A stretch of DNA of 64,000 bases from Escherichia virus TH15: sequence record MT446392.1. One strand, 5' to 3'. Both the position numbers and the translations under genes were made by a program. This document shows positions 1-10,576 of this stretch, one piece after another. The notes beneath the pieces are model-generated. The model saw nothing but the letters and a program-made list of their open reading frames with translations, had not been told where the DNA came from and searched no databases. How positions within the stretch are numbered: the stretch's first letter is position 1; each line of letters starts with the position of its first letter.

Positions 1-561
1 AATATGTTGATTGACCTGGAAGCAGGCCTTAAGGCGTTTGCTGACATGCCTATGCCAGATGATAATGAAGGCCTGAGCATTACAGACCTTATCGATGCCG
101 ATGATGAATTGTCTGGTGCTAAATTTGATGGTGATGATTCAGCCAAAGAAGAAGCCAAGCTCTTATTTGATGCTCCAGAAGCACCGGTTGAAGTAGTCGA
201 AGTTACCCAGGAAGTTGTTCCTGAACCAGAAGTTAAACTCGTTGAAATTGAAGTACCATTTGTCTCCAAAGACTTTGAAGAAGCTGTTGCTCAAATCATC
301 GAAGCTGAAACTCTTAAATTTACACTACCTAAAAACTTTAGCCCTAACCTGCTTATGTTGGGCAAAGCTCCTGGATACTGCACTCTCCCTTGGTGGATTT
401 ACCAGTGGATTAAAGAGACTCCAGATTGGAAAGAACGTCCTACCTCTTTTGCTCATGCAAGCGCGCATCAAACTCTGTTTAGTCTGATTTATTATATCAA
501 TCGCGATGGTTCGATTCTTATTCGCGAAACTCGCAACTCTTCTTTTGTTCGTTTAAATTAA
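1..561 (+). CDS. acidic hypothetical protein, probably 5'-truncated at window edge; position immediately upstream of hoc matches T4 inh (prohead protease inhibitor) by synteny only
   Basis: Open frame runs to nt 1 with no stop; 185-aa ORF in track; followed by terminator and hoc. Confidence 0.45.
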   Translation, partial: NMLIDLEAGLKAFADMPMPDDNEGLSITDLIDADDELSGAKFDGDDSAKEEAKLLFDAPEAPVEVVEVTQEVVPEPEVKLVEIEVPFVSKDFEEAVAQIIEAETLKFTLPKNFSPNLLMLGKAPGYCTLPWWIYQWIKETPDWKERPTSFAHASAHQTLFSLIYYINRDGSILIRETRNSSFVRLN

Positions 562-595: not shown

Positions 596-1723
596 ATGGC
601 TTTTATTGTATCTATTGCAGGTTCAGCCTCAATGAAAATTGGCGATAGCGCCAACTATACCGCTACTGCATCAGGAGCAGCGGTGGAAGGAACTGTCACA
701 TATGTATGGACTATTGATGGCGCCTCAAATCCAGAATCAACTAACGTTCTTCGTTATACGGGTACTGCTCCCGCGGGAAAGAAAATTTTAAAAGTAGTCG
801 CGACTTCCACACCGGCTGAAGGTGAGCCTGAAGTAGCCGAAAATACTTTTGAAGTAAATGTATCTAATAAAACTATGAGTATTTCTTTAGCTTTGGACCC
901 AGTTTCTGTATCTAAAGAAATTGGCCAATCTCAAGTTGTTACTGCTAACGTAACAGGTGCTCCTTCTGGAGCCACGATTGCTTATGTTTGGAAACGCAAT
1001 TCTAATGTAATCGCAGGTCAAACTGGTAAAACTATTACCGTAACCGAAGCAGCAGAAGCAAATTATACTTTGAACTGTGAAGTTACGGTTACTGCTCCTG
1101 AATATGATTCAGCTACTGCTACTAAAGGCGCGACGGTAACTTTTGCCAAGAAAACAATGTCAGGTGTTTCTGTTGTTTTAACACCGGAATCAATTAATGT
1201 TCCTAAAGATACACCAGCATCATTTAAGGCCGATGTAGTCGGTGCACCGAGTGAAGCATCCGGTGTTTATACATGGAAAAAAGATGGTTCTCCTGTTGAA
1301 GGTTCAACTTCCACTTTGACAATTGATACAAGTACCGAAGGTTCTCAAGTCATTGAAGTTTCGGTTGTTGTTTCTGCGCCCGATTATAAATCAGTAACAG
1401 TGACAACAACAGGTAATGTTACTATAACAGCTAAAGTTGCGCCGGAACCAGAAGGGGAACTTCCATATATTCATCCATTACCAGTTCGCAATTCAGCATA
1501 TATTTGGGCCGGTTGGTGGGTTATGGATGAGATTCAGAAGATGACTCTTGCTGGTAAAGACTGGAAAACCGATGAACCTGATAGTAATTATTATCTTCAT
1601 CGATACACTCTTGCCAAAATGCTTAATGATTATCCAGAGGTTGATGTACAAGAATCTCGCAATGGTCGAATTATTCATCGCACCGCGCTTGACGCTGGTA
1701 TTATCTACGACTACGTATATTAA
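596..1723 (+). CDS. hoc: Hoc, highly immunogenic outer capsid protein (Ig-like domains plus C-terminal capsid-binding domain)
   Basis: 375 aa; C-terminal block KVAPEPEGELPYIHPLP...WWVMDEIQKMT...YPEVDVQESRNG matches T4 Hoc as remembered; SD present. Confidence 0.9.
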   Translation: MAFIVSIAGSASMKIGDSANYTATASGAAVEGTVTYVWTIDGASNPESTNVLRYTGTAPAGKKILKVVATSTPAEGEPEVAENTFEVNVSNKTMSISLALDPVSVSKEIGQSQVVTANVTGAPSGATIAYVWKRNSNVIAGQTGKTITVTEAAEANYTLNCEVTVTAPEYDSATATKGATVTFAKKTMSGVSVVLTPESINVPKDTPASFKADVVGAPSEASGVYTWKKDGSPVEGSTSTLTIDTSTEGSQVIEVSVVVSAPDYKSVTVTTTGNVTITAKVAPEPEGELPYIHPLPVRNSAYIWAGWWVMDEIQKMTLAGKDWKTDEPDSNYYLHRYTLAKMLNDYPEVDVQESRNGRIIHRTALDAGIIYDYVY

Positions 1724-1753: not shown

Positions 1754-2620
1754 TTACCAAACTAAATCCTTTTTACCTAAAATATATCCGTTTCTTGATT
1801 CCTGTACTTCAATATCAGGATATTTCTCAAGCATTTCTGCTATCTTAGCAAGCTCACATTTGTATTTAAATCTATCGTGCATAGGATTCTTATGCCATTC
1901 AAAGCCTTCTATCAAAGCCTCTAAAATCTCATCATGAACCCACCAGCCAATCCACATATAAACTTTATTTCGACCACCACTTAAATGACTAAGATGCTCA
2001 TACTGATTAAGGTCATGAACATAGATATCTTTACATTCTATAGTAGTAGAAGGAGGAACTAATTGAATGTCAATTAGAGCTGTTGTTTCTTTATATCCAC
2101 CATGACTAAATGCTGTAGTAGATAATGTATAAGTTCCGTAATAAGAATCATCTTCAACAGTAAGACTAAATTGTTCATCAGTTCCTATTTGAATGCCATT
2201 ACGAAGCCAAACACACTTTCTATGAACCCATGTTGGCTCTACTATACACTGAGGAGCAAAATGGACCTGGCCGCCTATAGGAACTTCTATATAAAGTCTA
2301 GTTTTAAACTGTATTGTCGGTTCTCTAAGTTCTTCGCCTATTTCTAATTGAATTCTATTAGTTCTATACATCTCCCCTGTTGACTTAACGCCTAAAAGAG
2401 CGTAATATTCTCCTTCGGCTGGATAACCGACATCCCATAAATTTAGAGTCCATGGGTTTTCAGAATCCAACTTAGGTATAAGAACTACATCTTTATACCA
2501 TGCTACGTGAATATCATCAGGATGTATATTTACAGGCAAAGAAATCTCGGATAAATCAAATGTAATATCTTGACCTATCTGAGCATAATGAGGACCATGC
2601 ATAACGGCATATAATTTCAT
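1754..2620 (-). CDS. Hoc-like capsid decoration protein paralog: divergent N-terminal domains plus conserved Hoc C-terminal capsid-binding module
   Basis: 288 aa; C-terminus YMWIGWWVHDEILEA...YPDIEVQESRNGYIL aligns with Hoc YIWAGWWVMDEIQKM...YPEVDVQESRNGRII in the same window; 9 nt downstream of collagen-like gene. Confidence 0.75.
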   Translation of the reverse strand: MKLYAVMHGPHYAQIGQDITFDLSEISLPVNIHPDDIHVAWYKDVVLIPKLDSENPWTLNLWDVGYPAEGEYYALLGVKSTGEMYRTNRIQLEIGEELREPTIQFKTRLYIEVPIGGQVHFAPQCIVEPTWVHRKCVWLRNGIQIGTDEQFSLTVEDDSYYGTYTLSTTAFSHGGYKETTALIDIQLVPPSTTIECKDIYVHDLNQYEHLSHLSGGRNKVYMWIGWWVHDEILEALIEGFEWHKNPMHDRFKYKCELAKIAEMLEKYPDIEVQESRNGYILGKKDLVW

Positions 2621-2629
2621 GGGTTCTCC

Positions 2630-3949
2630 TTAAGATGCAAATATTATAGGTATACGCCCATGATTATTATTTTTAATAACCTGAATATAGATGTCAGAAT
2701 CAACATAATCATTTAAAGACCCGGTTGGAAGCATTTTTAAAGTATACCAAAAACCTGTGGCTTTATCTATAATTTCTGCAGTTGAACCTTCTCGACACTT
2801 ATCAAAAGAAATGTTATCCCATGTTACCCATGAGCTAGTCAGGTTTAAATTATTATCTGACTTGTTTTCTAAGCCAACCGCGTCATAGTTTGTGGTTCTA
2901 CGATAAGAATATGAAGCTGGCAAAGAGTCATTAAATCTTTTGACACTGATATCAAATGTGTTTTTAGTTGTGACTTTATATTTCATAGAAATATTAGTAT
3001 CAGCTAGTTTGACCGTGGCTTCAGCATTAGGAGAAGACATTGAATTAAAGCTTAAAATAATTTCCCAATATTTCTTAGGTTCAAATGGTTTAAGCTTGTC
3101 ATATAATTCCTCTAATTGAGATTCTGTCAAGCTGCCAATATCAAGAGCAGGGCCTTGAGGGCCTTGTGCACCGTCTATACCATTTTTACCAGGGTCGCCT
3201 TTTAATCCTTGCAGGCCTTGTGGTCCTTGAGGGCCATCTGTTCCAGCAGGACCTTGGTCACCTTTATCTCCTTTATCACCCTTGTCTCCTTTTGCGCCAG
3301 CCGATGCCATTATGGCCCAATCGTCATTTGACGGCAACGGCGGAATACCGGTATGAGTCGTAAGACTAAAATAGGTAGCTCCTTGGTACGCTACGGCGTC
3401 ATTTGGTACATACTCAATAGATATATCATATTCACCTTTCCATATTAATCCTGTTGCTCCTGCGGGGCCCGGGTCGCCTTTAGGACCATCTAGACCATTT
3501 TTACCCGGGTCGCCTTTAGGACCTTGAATACCTTGAATACCTTGAGGGCCGGTAGCCCCATCAATGCCGTTAGTTCCATCAGCCCCTTTAGGACCTTGAA
3601 TACCAGGTGCACCATCCATCCCGTGTACACCTGCCAGGCCTTGGGGACCTTGTAGACCATCTATTCCAGCAGGACCTTGTGGTCCTGGGTCACCTTTTAA
3701 TCCTTGTGGGCCTTGAATGCCCTGGATACCTTGGTCGCCTTTTGGGCCTACTGCGCCATCAGAAATTCCTATAAATGTCTTTGCTTCTTCTGAAGTAGCT
3801 TTAGTTAAAAATTCTAAACTCCAATCGGTAGTTGAACTTGTCGTAATAAGGTCTTCTACTTGTTTTGTATTACCTGCCTCTGGATTTCTAATGGTTTTGC
3901 CAGAAAAGTTACCTCTACCATCATGCCCAAACAATCTTTCGTCAGCCAT
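2630..3949 (-). CDS. collagen-like protein with two Gly-X-Y tracts and a C-terminal globular domain
   Basis: 439 aa; residues ~66-167 and ~217-267 are uninterrupted G-X-Y triplets; late promoter 36 nt upstream. Confidence 0.8.
3149..3301 (-). repeat. collagen Gly-X-Y triplet tract 2 (about 17 triplets, includes [11 protein letters not shown])
   Basis: Read from translation. Confidence 0.8.
3449..3754 (-). repeat. collagen Gly-X-Y triplet tract 1 (about 34 triplets) within collagen-like CDS
   Basis: [22 protein letters not shown]... periodicity read from translation. Confidence 0.8.
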
Positions 3950-3984
3950 TGTATCTTCTCCAATTTATTTGAATAACACAATTG

Positions 3985-3992
3985 TATTTATA
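3985..3992 (-). promoter_or_regulatory. T4-type late promoter TATAAATA for collagen-like/hoc-like operon
   Basis: Plus strand TATTTATA = minus TATAAATA, 36 nt upstream of ATG at 3949. Confidence 0.7.
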
Positions 3993-4041
3993 CTGTTTAC
4001 AAGTTAAAAATTCTATGTTAGGATAGCTTCACTAACTCAAC

Positions 4042-4245
4042 ATGAGAATCATTATGGATAAGGTTAAAGTACATTTTTTACATGAATCGGGTATGACATT
4101 TATTGAAATCGCCAAGGTATTGGGCGGGACTGCTAAAGAAATGGCAAAGGCATGGGTTGATGTAGAACACGCCAAAACCAAATTTAAAGCCAAAGAGAAA
4201 GTTGTGTATCGTAAACGTTTGAATAACAAAAAGGTGAAGAAATGA
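4042..4245 (+). CDS. hypothetical small basic protein
   Basis: 67-aa ORF with ATG; position corresponds to T4 24.3/24.2 region. Confidence 0.4.
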   Translation: MRIIMDKVKVHFLHESGMTFIEIAKVLGGTAKEMAKAWVDVEHAKTKFKAKEKVVYRKRLNNKKVKK

Positions 4246-4505
4246 CATTCGCAGAAGAACTACGCCAAATGGCCAAAGAGTCACAAGATAAAGTTGCAAA
4301 TGACTTTATTGCTATATTTCGCAAAGTGGCTATTGCCGCCGCCGAGAATGGCAAAGATGCTGTTAATATGGCAGTTTCTGAAAAAGAGTATGAAGAAGGA
4401 AACCGCGCAAAGATATCTGAATTTCTGCGAGCAGAAAAATTTACATCTTTTACCTGGAATTATGACTGGCAAGATAACAAACCAATGCTGTATGTAAAAT
4501 TCTGA
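4242..4505 (+). CDS. hypothetical protein
   Basis: 87-aa ORF, ATGA overlap with upstream ORF. Confidence 0.45.
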   Translation: MTFAEELRQMAKESQDKVANDFIAIFRKVAIAAAENGKDAVNMAVSEKEYEEGNRAKISEFLRAEKFTSFTWNYDWQDNKPMLYVKF

Positions 4506-4508
4506 CCT

Positions 4509-4538
4509 TTTTGCTTCAAATAAAATTGTGGTATAATG
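4509..4538 (+). promoter_or_regulatory. T4 middle-type promoter: MotA-box-like TTTGCTTCA plus TATAAT -10
   Basis: TGCTT at 4512-4516, TATAAT at 4533-4538, upstream of rnlB. Confidence 0.5.
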
Positions 4539-4634
4539 GTTCTAGACCCTTTGAGACTATTAATTCCTTTCAGAGAAAGAAAGTATAGTGGGTCTAATTT
4601 ATAATGATATTTATAACATCAAAAGTGAGAGAAT

Positions 4635-5639
4635 ATGTTTAAGAAATATAACAGCCTTGAAAATCACTATAACAACAAGTTCATTGAAAAGATTCGCCTG
4701 CAAGGCTTCACCAGCGGTGAATGGGTAGCTCGTGAGAAAATTCATGGTACCAACTTTTCATTAATTATTGAACAAAATAATGTGACATGTGCGAAACGCA
4801 CTGGACCTATCCTACCTGCAGAAGATTTCTATGGCTACGAAATTGTACTCAAGAACTATGCAGATTCCATTAAAACTGTGCAGAGACTTTTACAGGATAT
4901 TAATTACCAATCATACCAAATTTATGGTGAGTTTGCTGGTACAGGTATCCAGAAGAATGTGGATTATGGCGACAAAGATTTCTATGTGTTTGATATCCGC
5001 GTTACTAAGGAAGATGGCTCTGAATCTGTTTTGACTGATTCATTGATGGAAGCCTTCTGTATTATCCATAAATTTAAGGTTGCCCCACGCCTGGCTACGG
5101 GTAGTTTTGAAGACTTGATTAAGCTCCCTAACGACCTGGATTCTGTGGTTCCTGATTACAATTTTACAGTAGATAATGCGGGTTTGACTACCGCGAATAC
5201 CACCGATTTTGACGCAAAGGTTGAAGGTAAAGTATTCACTGCAGAAGGGTATGTTCTTAAACCTGATACTCCTGCCTGGTTACCTAATGGTGAGCGCGTA
5301 GCGATTAAATGTAAGAACTCTAAATTCAGCGAAAAGAAAAAGTCTGATAAGCCTATCAAGGCTGCTGTTGTGTTGTCCCAGGAAGACCTGGACATTTTAT
5401 GGAAGTTTACCGATTATGTGACTGTTAACCGTATCAATAATGTTATCAGTAAAATTGGGGAAGTAACGCCAAAGGATTTTGGAAAGGTAATGGGTTTGAC
5501 TGTTCAAGATATTTTGGAAGAAGCGGGTCGGGAAGGCCTTGAATTAACCCAAACGGAAAATCCTGTTGAAGTTAAAAAGCAACTCATTGCAAATGTAAGA
5601 GATACATTAAGACATGTTTGGATTGCATTAATTAGTTAA
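4635..5639 (+). CDS. rnlB: RNA ligase 2
   Basis: 334 aa; MFKKY..LENHYN.KFIEK...[18 protein letters not shown]...[16 protein letters not shown] matches T4 Rnl2 as remembered; nucleotidyltransferase KxHG lysine motif. Confidence 0.92.
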
Positions 5640-5644
5640 TAAAA

Positions 5645-5670
5645 AAGGGCCGCAAGGCCCTTATTCTTTT
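5645..5670. terminator. bidirectional intrinsic terminator (GGGCC-gcaa-GGCCC) after rnlB (+) and gp24 paralog (-)
   Basis: Hairpin with A6 upstream and T-rich run downstream. Confidence 0.7.
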
Positions 5671-6944
5671 TCCAGTGGTGGAAGTTTAACACCAAGATAA
5701 GAACTCAATTGGCTTTGGTTAGCCATCTTATCCATATCAGCCCCATCAATAATGCGAGCTTCTTTATCGTCTTTAGCAACGGTATAAGGGTTCGCAGTCA
5801 GTGCATAACGAGCTAACAGTGCAACTGTAGGCTGTAAACTTTCAGGGTCAACGATAACCTTGAATTCCCCAACCGAGGTGTCACCCTCATCATCAACTTC
5901 ACTAAGACCTTCCGTATAAGGCGCATAATACAAAGATGCGACCGTCTGACCTTCACCCATATCGGCATTTACGCCAACAATAACATAATCGCATGGGCTA
6001 TTCATATCTGCATAAAGCGGCAAACCGTTCTTCAGAACGCCATAGGCCAATTCATCCTGGTCGTCCTTTTTCTCAACCCAACCAGAAGCTGCTAAAATAG
6101 CTGCACACCGGGAAGAGGCAACTGCATATGTACCAGCGAACGAAGTCTGACGTTGAACTGCGGAATTCATTTCGCACATATAATAATACAGGGTTCGAGC
6201 CCGGTCTTGCGCATTATCATATCTCGGGTCGGTAAGATTCAATACACCTTTTTCAGAAACACCTTGTACCTTGAAGCGGGAACTAACAGTAATAAGGGAT
6301 TGCAGTACGTCCTTATTAATTTCCTCTGCCATTTGAATGCCAAGGATATTATCAATAAAATCTGTTGCGTCGAAACCATTTGCTTCCAGGTCCTGAGCAA
6401 GCTCAACAGTTAAAGAGGTTTTCAGTTTTCTGGATTTGACTTCGGTCTGCCATTTATCGATACGGAAACCGGCTTCAGCAATTTCAGGATGACCCTGTTC
6501 AAATTTATTAGTGAAAGCTGCATCCGACATCATTCTTATATGGCCAGCAGCAATGGCTTCAGAAATAACTTCACCCAAATCAGTTTCAAGGGTCCCAGCA
6601 AAAGGAGAAGCTTCCAAAACTTTGAATACAACGCTTTCGAACTGGAACATATCGCCGACTGCATAAGCTTCGTCTTTATTTGTAAATTCTGGGATATTCT
6701 TACGCTCGAACATGCCAATCTGGCCTGCAAATGTTGCTCCACCAAGATATGTCATTTTATCATCTGGGTTCAGAACACGAACACCATACAACGCTGCAAC
6801 AGGCTGGGTAGTTTTCTGTTCGGCAACGAGTGCTTTAAAAATTCGTTTATTCGTAGCCTGGGTATAAGAAAGCAAATTAGGACGGGCGACCTGGTTGGCC
6901 GCCGTTAATGTTGATTCGTGAATTAGTGCGTTAATCTTTTGCAT
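5661..6944 (-). CDS. second gp24-like head vertex protein (divergent tandem paralog)
   Basis: 427 aa; shares NKWxxxVKSRKLKTxLTVELAQDxEANGF and INKDVLQSLITVS blocks with adjacent gp24; start ATG abuts gp24 stop (TAAATG). Confidence 0.8.
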   Translation of the reverse strand: MQKINALIHESTLTAANQVARPNLLSYTQATNKRIFKALVAEQKTTQPVAALYGVRVLNPDDKMTYLGGATFAGQIGMFERKNIPEFTNKDEAYAVGDMFQFESVVFKVLEASPFAGTLETDLGEVISEAIAAGHIRMMSDAAFTNKFEQGHPEIAEAGFRIDKWQTEVKSRKLKTSLTVELAQDLEANGFDATDFIDNILGIQMAEEINKDVLQSLITVSSRFKVQGVSEKGVLNLTDPRYDNAQDRARTLYYYMCEMNSAVQRQTSFAGTYAVASSRCAAILAASGWVEKKDDQDELAYGVLKNGLPLYADMNSPCDYVIVGVNADMGEGQTVASLYYAPYTEGLSEVDDEGDTSVGEFKVIVDPESLQPTVALLARYALTANPYTVAKDDKEARIIDGADMDKMANQSQLSSYLGVKLPPLEKE

Positions 6945-8225
6945 TTACGCCTCATAAATGATTGGCGGAAGTTTAACACCGAGCAGATAAGACATATTGC
7001 TCTGGCCGGCCATTAAATCCATATTAGTTGCATCGATAATACGAGCTTCTTTGTCGTCTTTAGCAACGGTGTAAGGGTTAGCTGAAAGTGCATATCGAAC
7101 CATCAGGGAGATAGATGGCTGCAAGCTGTCTGGGTCCACAATGACCTTAAATGCACCTACGTGTTCTTCATCATCTAAGTCCAGGCCTTCGGTATAAGGA
7201 GCATAGAAGATTGAGCCTACGACTTCGTTTCCGCCATAATTTTCTTTAACGCCAACGGTTACATAATCTAATGGACTGTTAACATCACAGAATACAGGAA
7301 GACCATTAATCAAATAACCATACGCGGTTTCCGGGAGCCATTGTTCATCTTCAGGTTTATGTTTCAACCAACCGGAACCGGCGAGCATCGCGGCCACACG
7401 ACTTGAGGCAACAACGAATGTACCAGAGTAAGATGTAGTTTTCTGAATTTCAGAGTTCATTTCGCACACCAGTTCGTACAGTTTACGTGCGCCTTCTGGA
7501 GCTGAATCATATGTCAAATCGATGAAACCTTTATCAGAAACGCCAGTGACTTTATAACGCTTGGAAACGGTAATCAGAGACTGAAGAACATCTTTGTTAA
7601 TTTCATCTGCCATAGTAGTTGCAAGCAGGTCTTCCAGGAAAGCAGGAGCATTAAAACCGTTTGCTTCCATATCCTGTGCAAGTTCAACAGTCAGTGCAGT
7701 TTTCAATTTACGGGATTTAACAGGAGCATTCCATTTATTAACCTGGAATACAGCGTTACTAATTTCAACATCACCAGCTTCAAATTTCTCGGTGTGTGCA
7801 GCATCAGGAACTAAACGAATAGTCGATGCAATAAGACCTTCTTGCAGAACATCAGATAATACTGTTTCTGTAGTCGTTGCAAATGGATTATCCACCAGAG
7901 CTTTGTAAACGATATTTTGATATTTTACATATTCGCCTTTAGCAACAGGTTGAGTAGCTGTAGCTAATTCTGGAATAGTTGTACGGTCTTTAGAACCGAC
8001 TTCACCACCATAAGTAGCACCAGTCTGGAAACTGAATTCATTATCAGGAGTAAGATATTTAACACCGTACAGCGCAGCAACAGGCTGGTTAGTACGTTGT
8101 TCAGCGATGATATCGCGGTAAATCAATTTAGTTGTAGCGCGGGTCAAAGCAACAAGATTCGGGCGGCCTAATGAGTTGCTGGATGTAGTAGTTGACTCGC
8201 GCAGCAGTTCGTTAATCTTTGCCAT
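6945..8225 (-). CDS. 24: gp24 head vertex protein
   Basis: 426 aa; N-terminus MAKINELLRESTTT...GRPNLVALTRATTKLIY matches T4 gp24 as remembered. Confidence 0.9.
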   Translation of the reverse strand: MAKINELLRESTTTSSNSLGRPNLVALTRATTKLIYRDIIAEQRTNQPVAALYGVKYLTPDNEFSFQTGATYGGEVGSKDRTTIPELATATQPVAKGEYVKYQNIVYKALVDNPFATTTETVLSDVLQEGLIASTIRLVPDAAHTEKFEAGDVEISNAVFQVNKWNAPVKSRKLKTALTVELAQDMEANGFNAPAFLEDLLATTMADEINKDVLQSLITVSKRYKVTGVSDKGFIDLTYDSAPEGARKLYELVCEMNSEIQKTTSYSGTFVVASSRVAAMLAGSGWLKHKPEDEQWLPETAYGYLINGLPVFCDVNSPLDYVTVGVKENYGGNEVVGSIFYAPYTEGLDLDDEEHVGAFKVIVDPDSLQPSISLMVRYALSANPYTVAKDDKEARIIDATNMDLMAGQSNMSYLLGVKLPPIIYEA

Positions 8226-8250: not shown

Positions 8251-8258
8251 TATTTATA
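8251..8258 (-). promoter_or_regulatory. T4-type late promoter TATAAATA upstream of gene 24
   Basis: Minus-strand TATAAATA 26 nt upstream of ATG at 8225. Confidence 0.65.
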
Positions 8259-8318: not shown

Positions 8319-8978
8319 ATGCATTATTTAATTTACAAAATAACTAACTTGATAAATCATAAAATTTATATTGGGGCGCACGCCACAGAAAACGTGTATG
8401 ACTCCTATATGGGGTCGGGAGTCAACATTGTCAAATCCATCAAAAAACATGGTATTAAGAACTTTAAAAAAGAAATTTTGTTTGTTTTTGATACTTCATA
8501 TGAAATGTATGAGAAAGAAGCTGAACTTGTTAATGAACAATTTGTGCTTAGAGCTGATACATACAATGCAGCTATTGGCGGCAAGGGAAATCCAATTATT
8601 GTTAAACTACAAGACCCTTCATACAGAAAAATGATTTCAGAAAAGACAAAAGCAGGTATGACCGTAGAAGTAAAGCGGAAAATATCAATAGCAAAAACAG
8701 GAGTCAAACAGTCACAAGAGCTTATTGATAAACGTACGGCGGGTGTCAAAAAATATTTAGAAACACACCAGCATCACAACAAAAATAAACCAATAAGCGA
8801 TAGCCACCGCAAAGCAATTTCAGAAAAATTAAAAGGGATTAAAAAACTTATTAAGATTTCAATCAAAGGTAAGACTTTTGATAACCCAGATTTTGCTGCT
8901 GAACATTTTGGCGTTTCTCCAAAAACAATACGCAATTGGATAAATTCAGATAAACACCCAGACTGCTTCAAACAATAA
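8319..8978 (+). CDS. GIY-YIG homing endonuclease (Seg-like) with NUMOD3-type DNA-binding repeats
   Basis: 219 aa; N-terminal [19 protein letters not shown]...GSG GIY-YIG-type motif; inserted between genes 23 and 24 on opposite strand. Confidence 0.8.
8319..8978 (+). mobile_element. free-standing homing endonuclease gene insertion between 24 and 23
   Basis: Same as CDS; opposite strand to flanking late genes. Confidence 0.6.
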
Positions 8979-9016: not shown

Positions 9017-10576
9017 TTAAATTCCCTTAACATATACACGTCTAAAGTAACCGTTCAAGCCGAGGCTGTTAACGATGTCCGGCATACCGTTTTGAATACG
9101 CTTGGTCGGAGCCTGAGCTGCCGGGTCAGCGAACGGGTTAATACCGATACCGTAACGGGTTTTGAAGCCCATAACCGGCTGGAAGTTTTTCGGGTCAGAG
9201 CCACGCAGCGGTGTCAGTGCAACATATGGTGCGTAGTAGATACCAGCATCCATTTCGTTAGCACCTTTGTAACCGATGGTGAAGTAATCTGCGCGAGCAT
9301 ACTGGTCGATATAGACACGGTATTTGCCACCCAGAACACCAGCGAACACAGCTTTAGTGGTGTCAACGTTGAAACCTTTACCCAGACCCTGAGCAGCATA
9401 AGATACGGAGGTATCAACTGCAGCCAGTACGTTAACTACGTTACGGGAAGCGATGATGAAGTTACCTGCACCACGACCGGTCTGACGAGCGATTTCAGCA
9501 GCTTCTTTGTCAATCTGGAACAGTAAAGCTTTGAAGCTTTCACCAGCCCAACGAGCGCCACGGATATCAATCGGGTCCTGGAAGTCAAACACACCAGCTT
9601 TAGCGCCAACGGTGTTGGTCATACCAGATTTACCAACCTGTGCGGAGTAGTTAATCCAATCGATAACTTCGCGGTTGATTTCCAGCATAATTTCAGTAGC
9701 CAGAATACCACTCAATTCAGCATCAGCGTCCATACCGTGAACAGCGCGCAGGTCCTGTGCCAGTTCGATAGAGTAGCTTGCTTTCAGCTGACGGGATTTA
9801 GCTTCGATAACTTGTTTATCGATGCGGAAGCCCATTTCGTTCCACGGGTTATCCTGAGAACCGTTGAAACCTTCCTGCAGTTCGGCGATAGAGGTAGCCA
9901 TACCTTCAGCGATTTCTGCCAGTTTACCAGCTTCGAGCAGTTTGGTAACTTCAGCGTCAAGTTTAGCAGCATCAGTAGCGGCGGCATCAACGGTTACAGC
10001 TTCAACAGCCTGGTAGTGTGCGGAACCGGTTGCTTCGAAGAAGTGAGAATAAATTTTACCAACGGTAAGAACTTTGCTTGCAGCCAGAGCTTCGAAAGCT
10101 TCAGCAGCGCCCTGACCGGAGAACATAGCGTTCGGAGCATACATCGGGTGGAAAGCTTCTTTAGCACCAGCAGCTACAGGGTCTTTACCGTAAACTGCAC
10201 GCAGGGCAAATACCTGGCCAGTCGGGTTGTTCAGAGGCTGGACGCCACAAATATCAAACGCAATCAGATGCGGGATAGCACGACGAACCATACCCATAAC
10301 TGCCGGCCCAATCTGAGTTACTGCACCAGAGGTCTGGCCAGCAGCGATATTGGTAGCATCATAACCATGGTCACCACCGATTTCAGCTTCGGTCAGGAAA
10401 GAACCAAATGCTTCGGAGATTTTTTCGTCACGGTATTCTGGAGCGGTCAGGATATCTTGTTCCTGGTTTTCAAAGATTTTAGCGATGATAGCTTGTTTAG
10501 AAGCACCAACGATTTCAGGAAGAGCTTCATTTTCCAGCAGAGCGGACCATTTTTGTACTAATGCATTCTTTTTCAT
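9017..10576 (-). CDS. 23: gp23 major capsid protein
   Basis: 519 aa; long blocks matching T4 gp23 as remembered (AIIAKIFENQE, GPAVMGMVRRAIP, NPWNEMGFRIDKQVIEAKSRQLKA). Confidence 0.97.
   Translation of the reverse strand: MKKNALVQKWSALLENEALPEIVGASKQAIIAKIFENQEQDILTAPEYRDEKISEAFGSFLTEAEIGGDHGYDATNIAAGQTSGAVTQIGPAVMGMVRRAIPHLIAFDICGVQPLNNPTGQVFALRAVYGKDPVAAGAKEAFHPMYAPNAMFSGQGAAEAFEALAASKVLTVGKIYSHFFEATGSAHYQAVEAVTVDAAATDAAKLDAEVTKLLEAGKLAEIAEGMATSIAELQEGFNGSQDNPWNEMGFRIDKQVIEAKSRQLKASYSIELAQDLRAVHGMDADAELSGILATEIMLEINREVIDWINYSAQVGKSGMTNTVGAKAGVFDFQDPIDIRGARWAGESFKALLFQIDKEAAEIARQTGRGAGNFIIASRNVVNVLAAVDTSVSYAAQGLGKGFNVDTTKAVFAGVLGGKYRVYIDQYARADYFTIGYKGANEMDAGIYYAPYVALTPLRGSDPKNFQPVMGFKTRYGIGINPFADPAAQAPTKRIQNGMPDIVNSLGLNGYFRRVYVKGI

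Follow-up and report, generated by a model that had tools for sequence, protein, structure and literature searches.

On the phage T4 capsid, Hoc is the standard platform for display, and it is also the chief candidate for making phages adhere to mucus. The T4 protein has 376 amino acids, with three immunoglobulin-like (Ig-like) domains N-terminal to a capsid-binding, or anchor, domain (PDB 5VF3 and 8T1X; Fokine et al. 2023, PMC10385173), and the equivalent N-terminal domains of RB49 Hoc are represented by PDB entry 3SHS. Section 3.6 of PMC10385173 describes a second, shorter Hoc in Serratia phage Muldoon (314 amino acids, two Ig-like domains and an anchor) and two Hoc-like proteins in Enterobacter phage PG7, the short one having 233 amino acids, and carries the proposal that the anchor is used for displaying other ligands. 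Two further decorations sit at the centres of capsid hexamers: the monomeric pb10 of T5, which joins a capsid-binding domain to an Ig-like domain (PMC5292684), and the trimeric, collagen-like gp12 of SPP1 (Zairi et al. 2014, cited by both PMC5292684 and PMC7602432). Here, we analyse a 64,000-nucleotide (nt) stretch of Escherichia virus TH15 (MT446392.1), which we call the window. The phage is T4-like, and its hoc region forms the left end of the window, where a second Hoc-family gene lies on the strand opposite hoc (positions 1754–2620). We denote this gene hoc2 and its product Hoc2. We consider it probable that hoc2 is functional, is expressed late and encodes a second, shorter decoration protein that binds hexamer centres in competition with Hoc, and that it represents an old lineage, here termed type 2, inherited as a cassette with a collagen-like fibre gene. 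In kind, hoc2 is ordinary, a functional-looking second Hoc paralogue of a sort known from relatives; its fixed pairing with the fibre gene is the less expected and newer point.

Hoc2 is a second Hoc-family protein

The features on which the comparison with Hoc rests are as follows, with residue numbers referring to the encoded proteins.

596–1723, plus strand: hoc, the resident gene (375 amino acids, type-1 anchor; PHROG 1149, E = 2.5e-109)
1754–2620, minus strand: hoc2, encoding a 288-amino-acid short Hoc-family protein (33.5 kDa, isoelectric point 5.1; open reading frame with ATG start; PHROG 1149)
2330–2620, minus strand: predicted Ig-like domain 1 of Hoc2, distal (residues 1–97; all-beta in the AlphaFold2 (AF2) model, with predicted local distance difference test scores (pLDDT) of 88–96 by block; Foldseek)
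2051–2329, minus strand: predicted Ig-like domain 2 of Hoc2 (residues 98–190; all-beta in the AF2 model, block pLDDT 86–95)
1757–2035, minus strand: C-terminal capsid-binding (anchor) domain of Hoc2 (residues 196–288; homology to Hoc; variable loop at residues 204–216)
9017–10576, minus strand: gp23, major capsid protein and predicted partner of both Hoc proteins (PHROG 138, E = 7.5e-174)

The two genes converge, as the preliminary description of the locus had noted: the hoc stop codon ends at 1723 and that of hoc2 occupies 1754–1756, leaving a 30-nt spacer (1724–1753). Its further claims of a C-terminal similarity to Hoc and of a second Hoc-like gene also stand, with BLASTP, phmmer and PHROG 1149 identifying hoc2 as a genuine member of the family with a homologous capsid-binding domain. 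In a single pairwise comparison of Hoc2 with the resident Hoc, BLASTP aligned Hoc 298–365 with Hoc2 217–286 at 30 of 71 identical positions (42%, E = 4e-16), and phmmer, run against the whole PDB, matched the same C-terminal stretch to residues 297–365 of T4 Hoc chain 5vf3_Z (E = 1.6e-12). These two values rule out a chance similarity of the anchors. The PHROG 1149 profile, ‘Hoc-like head decoration’, spans Hoc2 residues 5–286 (E = 1.3e-43), and PHROGs 21694, 14282 and 11091 each match as well.

Outside the anchor, the two proteins are pairwise unrelated, the best further BLASTP segment having E = 0.28. The preliminary description had read this as different N-terminal domains, a reading that finds no support in the span of the PHROG 1149 profile, nor in the AF2 model and a Foldseek match to 3SHS, by which the N-terminal 190 or so residues of Hoc2 are predicted to form two Ig-like domains. 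The model, built with 15 homologues, has a mean pLDDT of 87.6 and consists of two all-beta domains followed by an alpha/beta domain; it is poorly determined at about residues 190–218, falling below a pLDDT of 50 in the loop 213–215. Its best structural match is RB49 Hoc's trio of Ig-like domains at the N terminus (3SHS, E = 6.9e-11), followed by many Ig-domain proteins. Sequence identity to 3SHS is just 14%, and the TM-scores are low (0.28–0.29) because the relative orientation of the domains differs. Ig-like domain 2 also gives weak sequence matches to titin Ig domains, and the 166-residue homologue in Erwinia phage Cronus keeps a single Ig-like domain, equivalent to domain 1. The N-terminal part of Hoc2 is thus predicted to be the usual Hoc building block, in two copies and not three, diverged past pairwise detection. 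A conserved motif in the first domain, ‘YDVGYPAEGTYYA’, was considered as a partner-binding surface and set aside; the standard Ig strand-F consensus is D-x-G-x-Y-x-C, and we take the motif as structural on that basis.

The modelled anchor contains strands at residues 201–203 and 219–224, helices at 226–237 and 254–266, a strand at 269–274, and then a short strand and a helix (block pLDDT 85–91), in agreement, by element order and not by superposition, with the described T4 domain. Two cysteines, Cys196 and Cys255 (about 2033–2035 and 1856–1858 in the window), are invariant across all 15 aligned Hoc2 homologues and may form a disulfide within the anchor. T4 Hoc has no cysteines at the equivalent places, but some Hoc proteins whose anchor is of the T4 type do (CGG4-1 gp209). 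T5 pb10 shares with Hoc2 the combination of a capsid-binding and an Ig-like domain, but its anchor is N-terminal, reversing the order, and of unrelated fold (PMC5292684).

Predicted capsid contacts

Section 3.4 of PMC10385173 lists the residues of T4 Hoc that touch gp23* as Y293, H295, H299, R300, Y304, W306, W309, W310, D313 and the run Q354-E-S-R-N-G-Y360. Hoc2 keeps 13 of these contacts unchanged (R300 as R217, Y304 as Y221, W306 as W223, W309 as W226, W310 as W227, D313 as D230, and Q354-ESRNG-Y360 as Q273 to Y279), and by the motif IYVHDL, Y293 and H295 correspond to Hoc2 Y200-V-H202. The sole contact lost is H299, which aligns with Gly216 in the HMMER alignment. Aligned to T4 Hoc, the resident Hoc leaves the 16 listed contacts unchanged except for H299 and Y360. 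The capsid side is similarly conserved: gp23 of the window is 85% identical to T4 gp23, and its Hoc-binding segment (residues 326–344) is identical at 18 of 19 positions, with D336 and R344 retained.

The same section of PMC10385173 places the ESRNG loop of T4 Hoc at the exact centre of the hexamer, touching all six subunits. Two anchors of this kind therefore cannot share one hexamer, and with one anchor per hexamer centre Hoc and Hoc2 would compete for the same sites, which is the simplest inference from the retained contacts. As hoc2 is very probably functional, this phage is likely to have a pair of decoration proteins that use one type of site.

Expression signals and selection

Upstream of hoc2 on the same strand lies the collagen-like fibre gene, and the signals around the two genes are listed here.

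2630–3949, minus strand: collagen-like fibre gene, the first of the two cassette genes (439 amino acids; Pfam Collagen, PHROG 5073)
3985–3992, minus strand: TATAAATA, the T4 late-promoter consensus (starts 43 nt upstream of the fibre-gene ATG)
2626–2631, minus strand: Shine–Dalgarno sequence AAGGAG of hoc2 (5 nt before the ATG, overlapping the fibre-gene stop; junction ...TCTTAAGGAGAACCCATG)
1729–1748, either strand: shared GC-rich hairpin AAAGGGCC-TTGC-GGCCCTTT, putatively an intrinsic terminator acting in both directions (an A-run and a T-run flank it)

With a promoter consensus ahead, an overlapping Shine–Dalgarno sequence between the genes and a hairpin behind, the fibre gene and hoc2 look like one late transcription unit. 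The TATAAATA element is found at the same place in the closest record of the phage collection, Salmonella phage vB_SalM_ABTNLsp5 (Dhakavirus), whose layout is identical. Across the window it occurs 19 times, against 5.4 expected, and the copies cluster by strand: the minus strand carries all of the first 14 (to 29 kb), further copies at 4608–4615 and 8251–8258 being among them, and the plus strand all of the last five (from 38 kb). This distribution looks like a late-promoter map, as real late promoters would give. Within the window, no plus-strand copy lies upstream of hoc, which is therefore probably transcribed together with inh from outside the window. The TAAGGAG junction recurs, with gaps of 8–9 nt, in ABTNLsp5, in CGG4-1 and in the first of two cassettes on metagenomic contig L009; the second L009 cassette has TAAGGAT.

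The preliminary description had hoc and hoc2 converging on one bidirectional terminator. There is indeed one shared hairpin, and it folds on both strands (plus strand, −17.2 kcal/mol, z = −3.9; minus strand, −14.8 kcal/mol, z = −2.5); termination itself is a prediction, with the terminator scan flagging the hairpin as terminator-like on the minus strand. A GC-rich hairpin of differing stem sequence lies 3′ of hoc2 in 9 of 10 loci examined, and is therefore a conserved element, most simply a predicted terminator.

The coding sequence is constrained. Compared with ABTNLsp5, the ratio of non-synonymous to synonymous substitution rates (dN/dS) of hoc2 is 0.095 at a dS of about 1.1, with 0.043 for Ig-like domain 1, 0.175 for domain 2 and 0.093 for the anchor; hoc has values of 0.12–0.18, making hoc2 at least as constrained. 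Across 15 full-length Hoc2 homologues, 43 alignment columns are invariant. On these comparisons hoc2 is under strong purifying selection and very probably functional.

Proposed function of Hoc2

In the arrangement we favour, a Hoc2 monomer would dock after prohead expansion with its ESRNG loop in the middle of a gp23* hexamer, as T4 Hoc does. Hoc2, with two Ig-like domains, would compete with Hoc, which has three if it resembles T4 Hoc in this respect, for the same sites, of which T4 has 155, and the result would be heads with mixed long and short fibres of different surface specificity. The presumed role of Hoc2, as for Hoc, would be adhesion or dispersal and not capsid stability. Beyond the anchor contacts and Ig-like domains, Hoc2 resembles T4 Hoc in being acidic and in probably being the product of a late gene. 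It differs in size and domain number (288 residues with two predicted Ig-like domains, against three in T4 Hoc) and in position, as hoc2 is the second gene of a cassette on the opposite strand and T4 hoc lies downstream of inh. Two or three Hoc paralogues could give a phage a mixed surface able to bind different ligands, a point that bears on traits independent of host range, such as the gut retention of therapeutic phages, and is already recognised in the literature.

Several points weigh against this picture. The type-2 anchor differs from that of T4 in four respects: an insertion of about 10 residues between the YVH strand and Arg217, which is of low confidence in the model; a 2-residue insertion before the KYKCE helix; the missing C-terminal tail of about 10 residues that is present in Hoc (ALDAGIIYDYVY); and the invariant Cys196/Cys255 pair. 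The footprint or site preference of Hoc2 could therefore differ from that of Hoc. The fixed pairing with a fibre gene suggests that the function of Hoc2 may not be that of a stand-alone Hoc. As to expression, the exact TATAAATA sequence is absent from the upstream stretch examined in phages JS10 and IME08 and lies within 120 nt in just 5 of 12 cassettes examined, so the evidence from promoters applies just to this phage and a few relatives. A literature search for proteomic, cryogenic electron microscopy or other experimental reports on any Hoc2 found none.

A cassette of a fibre gene and hoc2

In T4, 24.3 directly follows hoc on the same strand; the two minus-strand genes of the window are therefore an insertion relative to T4. 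The fibre protein consists, in order, of a conserved N-terminal domain (M-A-D..., GHDGRGNF), G-x-y repeats, an insert resembling carbohydrate-binding module (CBM) families 5 and 12, a helix and a beta-sandwich of about 140 residues. Pfam PF01391 matches over three stretches (E = 3.2e-26) and PHROG 5073 over the protein (E = 1.4e-56), and the C-terminal domain is modelled by AF2 with block pLDDT of 64–87. No Pfam family matches the N- or C-terminal domain, and a word-indexed protein search with the C-terminal domain alone gave no match; the full-length search was swamped by collagen repeats and yielded seven true homologues. Against the PDB, Foldseek found no match to the fibre model at E < 1e-3, and its weak lectin, MATH-like and generic beta-sandwich matches are not interpreted here; BFVD returned unannotated homologues only. 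Homologues carry the annotation ‘tail fiber’, for which we looked for an experimental localisation and found none.

The fibre gene and hoc2 are separated by 9 nt in the window, and nearly all phages that bear hoc2 have a GHDGRG-family gene upstream of the short hoc on the same strand, usually at −11 to +11 nt. The pair occurs in Dhakavirus and relatives (ABTNLsp5, CLB_P2, dhaeg, dhabil, Ec2-ASingh and JS10), in other Tevenvirinae (VR7 of Gaprivervirus, CGG4-1 of Gelderlandvirus, and Cronus, IT22 and FBB1), in Aeromonas phages 65, 65.2, AS4, GomatiRiver_11 and AhFM11, in Pantoea phage Phynn and in four metagenomic contigs. VR7 is the loosest case, with a gap of 127 nt and a fibre N terminus that resembles the GHDGRG domain only partly. 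The pair is known from at least three genomic contexts: in the window it lies between hoc and 24.3; in Cronus it comes right after the two gp24 genes; in phages 65 and Phynn it is remote from the head genes, its surroundings being tk (thymidine kinase) and hypothetical genes or genes for NAMPT and RNA ligase; in AS4, where the flanking genes are mostly unannotated, it is probably also away from the head genes. Contig L009, a metagenomic phage of 118.9 kb, has two tandem cassettes at 2526–7495, encoding proteins of 488 and 278 and of 586 and 286 amino acids. A converging gene of 932 codons follows these cassettes in L009.

The constant parts of the cassette are the GHDGRG domain of the fibre and the Ig-like domain 1 and anchor of Hoc2. 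Variation affects collagen length, the CBM-like insert, the C-terminal domain of the fibre, which is swapped in JS10, and Ig-like domain 2 of Hoc2, which Cronus lacks. In the JS10 fibre (L014:470-1477), an N-terminal domain, CBM-like insert and collagen repeats of the usual kind are joined to an unrelated C-terminal domain, so the distal end of the fibre is exchangeable. In IME08 (L002:4402-4476), the fibre gene has been cut to a 24-codon remnant, MPDNPLYGHDGRGVSLELTSESTF, which keeps MPDNPLYGHDGRG and the C-terminal ...STF, beside an intact hoc2 of 288 codons; in Pseudomonas phage PspYZU05 (L018:3780-3929), the fibre is a shortened N-terminal open reading frame of 49 codons and the hoc2 frame is open. 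These cases argue that Hoc2 has no strict need of the fibre. Elsewhere in the IME08 record, at 108206–108277, an unannotated copy of the fibre N-terminal motif lies ahead of the collagen-like gp169.

Conserved order, spacing and joint transfer give strong evidence, at the sequence level, that the fibre gene and hoc2 form a two-gene cassette, and are suggestive of a shared function. We found no published description of such a cassette. One form that a shared function could take is a two-component head fibre, in which the Hoc2 anchor would sit on the hexamer and its distal Ig-like domain would hold the N-terminal domain of the trimeric collagen-like protein, producing long fibres with exchangeable tips. 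The fibre gene adjoins hoc2 upstream in many T4-like phages, the pair moves as a unit among genomic contexts and is tandemly duplicated as a unit in L009, and the GHDGRG domain, Ig-like domain 1 and anchor are its invariant parts. SPP1 gp12, a collagen-like trimer at hexamer centres (PMC5292684, PMC7602432), makes a head location of the fibre conceivable; it is compared with the fibre by type, with no sequence relationship claimed, and it binds the capsid by itself. Adjacency and joint transfer, however, speak of linkage and not of contact, hoc2 persists intact beside decayed fibre genes, and ‘tail fiber’ is the sole annotation of the fibre family, whose C-terminal domain lacks a significant match among solved folds. 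A monomeric anchor holding a trimer would also entail a symmetry mismatch, and we know of no example of this in the Hoc family.

We regard the two-component fibre as unlikely, though far less so than the alternatives taken up below, and place about the same limited weight on the broader proposal that the cassette might encode a head appendage in two parts, mobile and expressed late, which T4-like phages of several genera and two subfamilies would have acquired, duplicated and in some cases half lost. If the fibre and Hoc2 do act together, the cassette would be a modular means by which heads are fitted with long trimeric fibres, would offer engineering a natural template and, if true, would be an undescribed way of attaching a foreign trimeric fibre at the Hoc site. 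If they do not, it is still a clear, self-contained late-gene unit that moves between T4-like genomes.

Origin of hoc2

A short decoration protein competing with Hoc, our preferred reading, carries with it an old origin of hoc2, which its relatives support. Hoc2 shares 84% identity with its ABTNLsp5 homologue, which is named ‘outer capsid protein Hoc I’, and the other phage records listed after that one are at about 43% identity or less. Phages of several genera share the full three-part architecture over its whole length, at 30–84% identity. Full-length homologues at 30–47% occur in Dhakavirus (IME08, JS10, dhabil, dhaeg and CLB_P2), in other Tevenvirinae (Gaprivervirus VR7, Gelderlandvirus CGG4-1 and Erwinia phages Cronus, IT22 and FBB1), in Pantoea phage Phynn and in Aeromonas phages 65, AS4, AhFM11 and GomatiRiver_11. 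In a neighbour-joining tree of anchor domains, the Hoc2 proteins of the window, ABTNLsp5, IME08 and CGG4-1 cluster apart from the co-resident Hocs and T4 Hoc, each phage's Hoc2 joining other Hoc2 proteins and not its own Hoc. The two anchor types are also told apart by motif: T4-type anchors have YYLHRYTL and the C-terminal ALDAGIIYDYVY tail, and type-2 anchors have RFKYKCE with two extra residues and are tail-less. The separate anchor clade and the end-to-end conservation thus identify hoc2 as an old paralogue lineage and not a recent fusion derived from the neighbouring hoc. Between this phage and IME08, dN is 0.13 for Hoc and 0.56 for Hoc2; hoc2 has perhaps been exchanged horizontally.

CGG4-1 has three Hoc genes. 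At the ordinary hoc position, both it (L003:5374-8208) and MN01 (L015:1006-3840) encode Hoc proteins of 944 amino acids; the one in CGG4-1 has a type-2 anchor, and anchor types are therefore not tied to long or short proteins.

These results bear on the suggestion, made in the preliminary description, that a display domain was swapped onto a capsid anchor in this genome. Such a recent local event, in which the anchor of the resident hoc was copied onto an unrelated N-terminal display module, would account for pairwise BLAST similarity confined to the last 71 or so residues and for the two genes being neighbours. The 288-residue architecture is, however, shared by several genera, the anchor is 42% identical to that of the resident Hoc and visibly closer to other Hoc2 anchors, with which it forms its own clade, and the N-terminal part is Ig-like, as in Hoc; we consider a local copy highly improbable. 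As little credence is due to the reading of hoc2 as a pseudogene or unexpressed relic derived from a duplicated hoc, for which it may be said that the gene is known from its sequence. Against it stand the intact reading frame, the strong Shine–Dalgarno sequence, late-promoter consensus and hairpin, the invariant columns among homologues and the dN/dS, on which we reject it, and real decay looks different, as in the fibre remnants of IME08 and PspYZU05.

Nor is a second Hoc gene something new in itself, as had been implied. In public records, the names hoc, hoc-2 or Hoc I have already been given to the homologues of JS10, IME08, VR7 (ORF197w), Aeromonas phage 65 (‘hoc-2, second copy of the hoc gene’), CGG4-1 and ABTNLsp5, all with the same family and domain plan as Hoc2, and a protein identical in sequence to Hoc2 is already present in NCBI. 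Second short Hocs are also described in PMC10385173; those of Muldoon and PG7 embody the same idea as Hoc2, a likeness drawn from their published descriptions. The Petrov 2010 review does not mention Hoc. What stands is that Hoc2 of the window is a divergent allele of this known kind of gene.

Neighbouring genes

The remaining genes at the left end of the window are the following.

4–561, plus strand: inh, with its 5′ end cut off (gene list of the window)
4042–4245, plus strand: 24.3-like gene
4242–4505, plus strand: 24.2-like gene
4635–5639, plus strand: rnlB
5661–6944 and 6945–8225, minus strand: two tandem paralogues of gp24 (vertex protein)
8319–8978, plus strand: segD-like homing endonuclease of GIY-YIG type (PHROG 314, E = 8.7e-50)

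Two copies of gp24 are also present in IME08, VR7, Cronus and ABTNLsp5, and T4 has one. The segD-like gene sits between gp24 and gp23, as segD does in T4. In the gap between inh and hoc, a short GC-rich hairpin at 566–580 (GGACC-AGAAG-GGTCC, minus strand) is followed by a T-run on the plus strand and could attenuate read-through into hoc.

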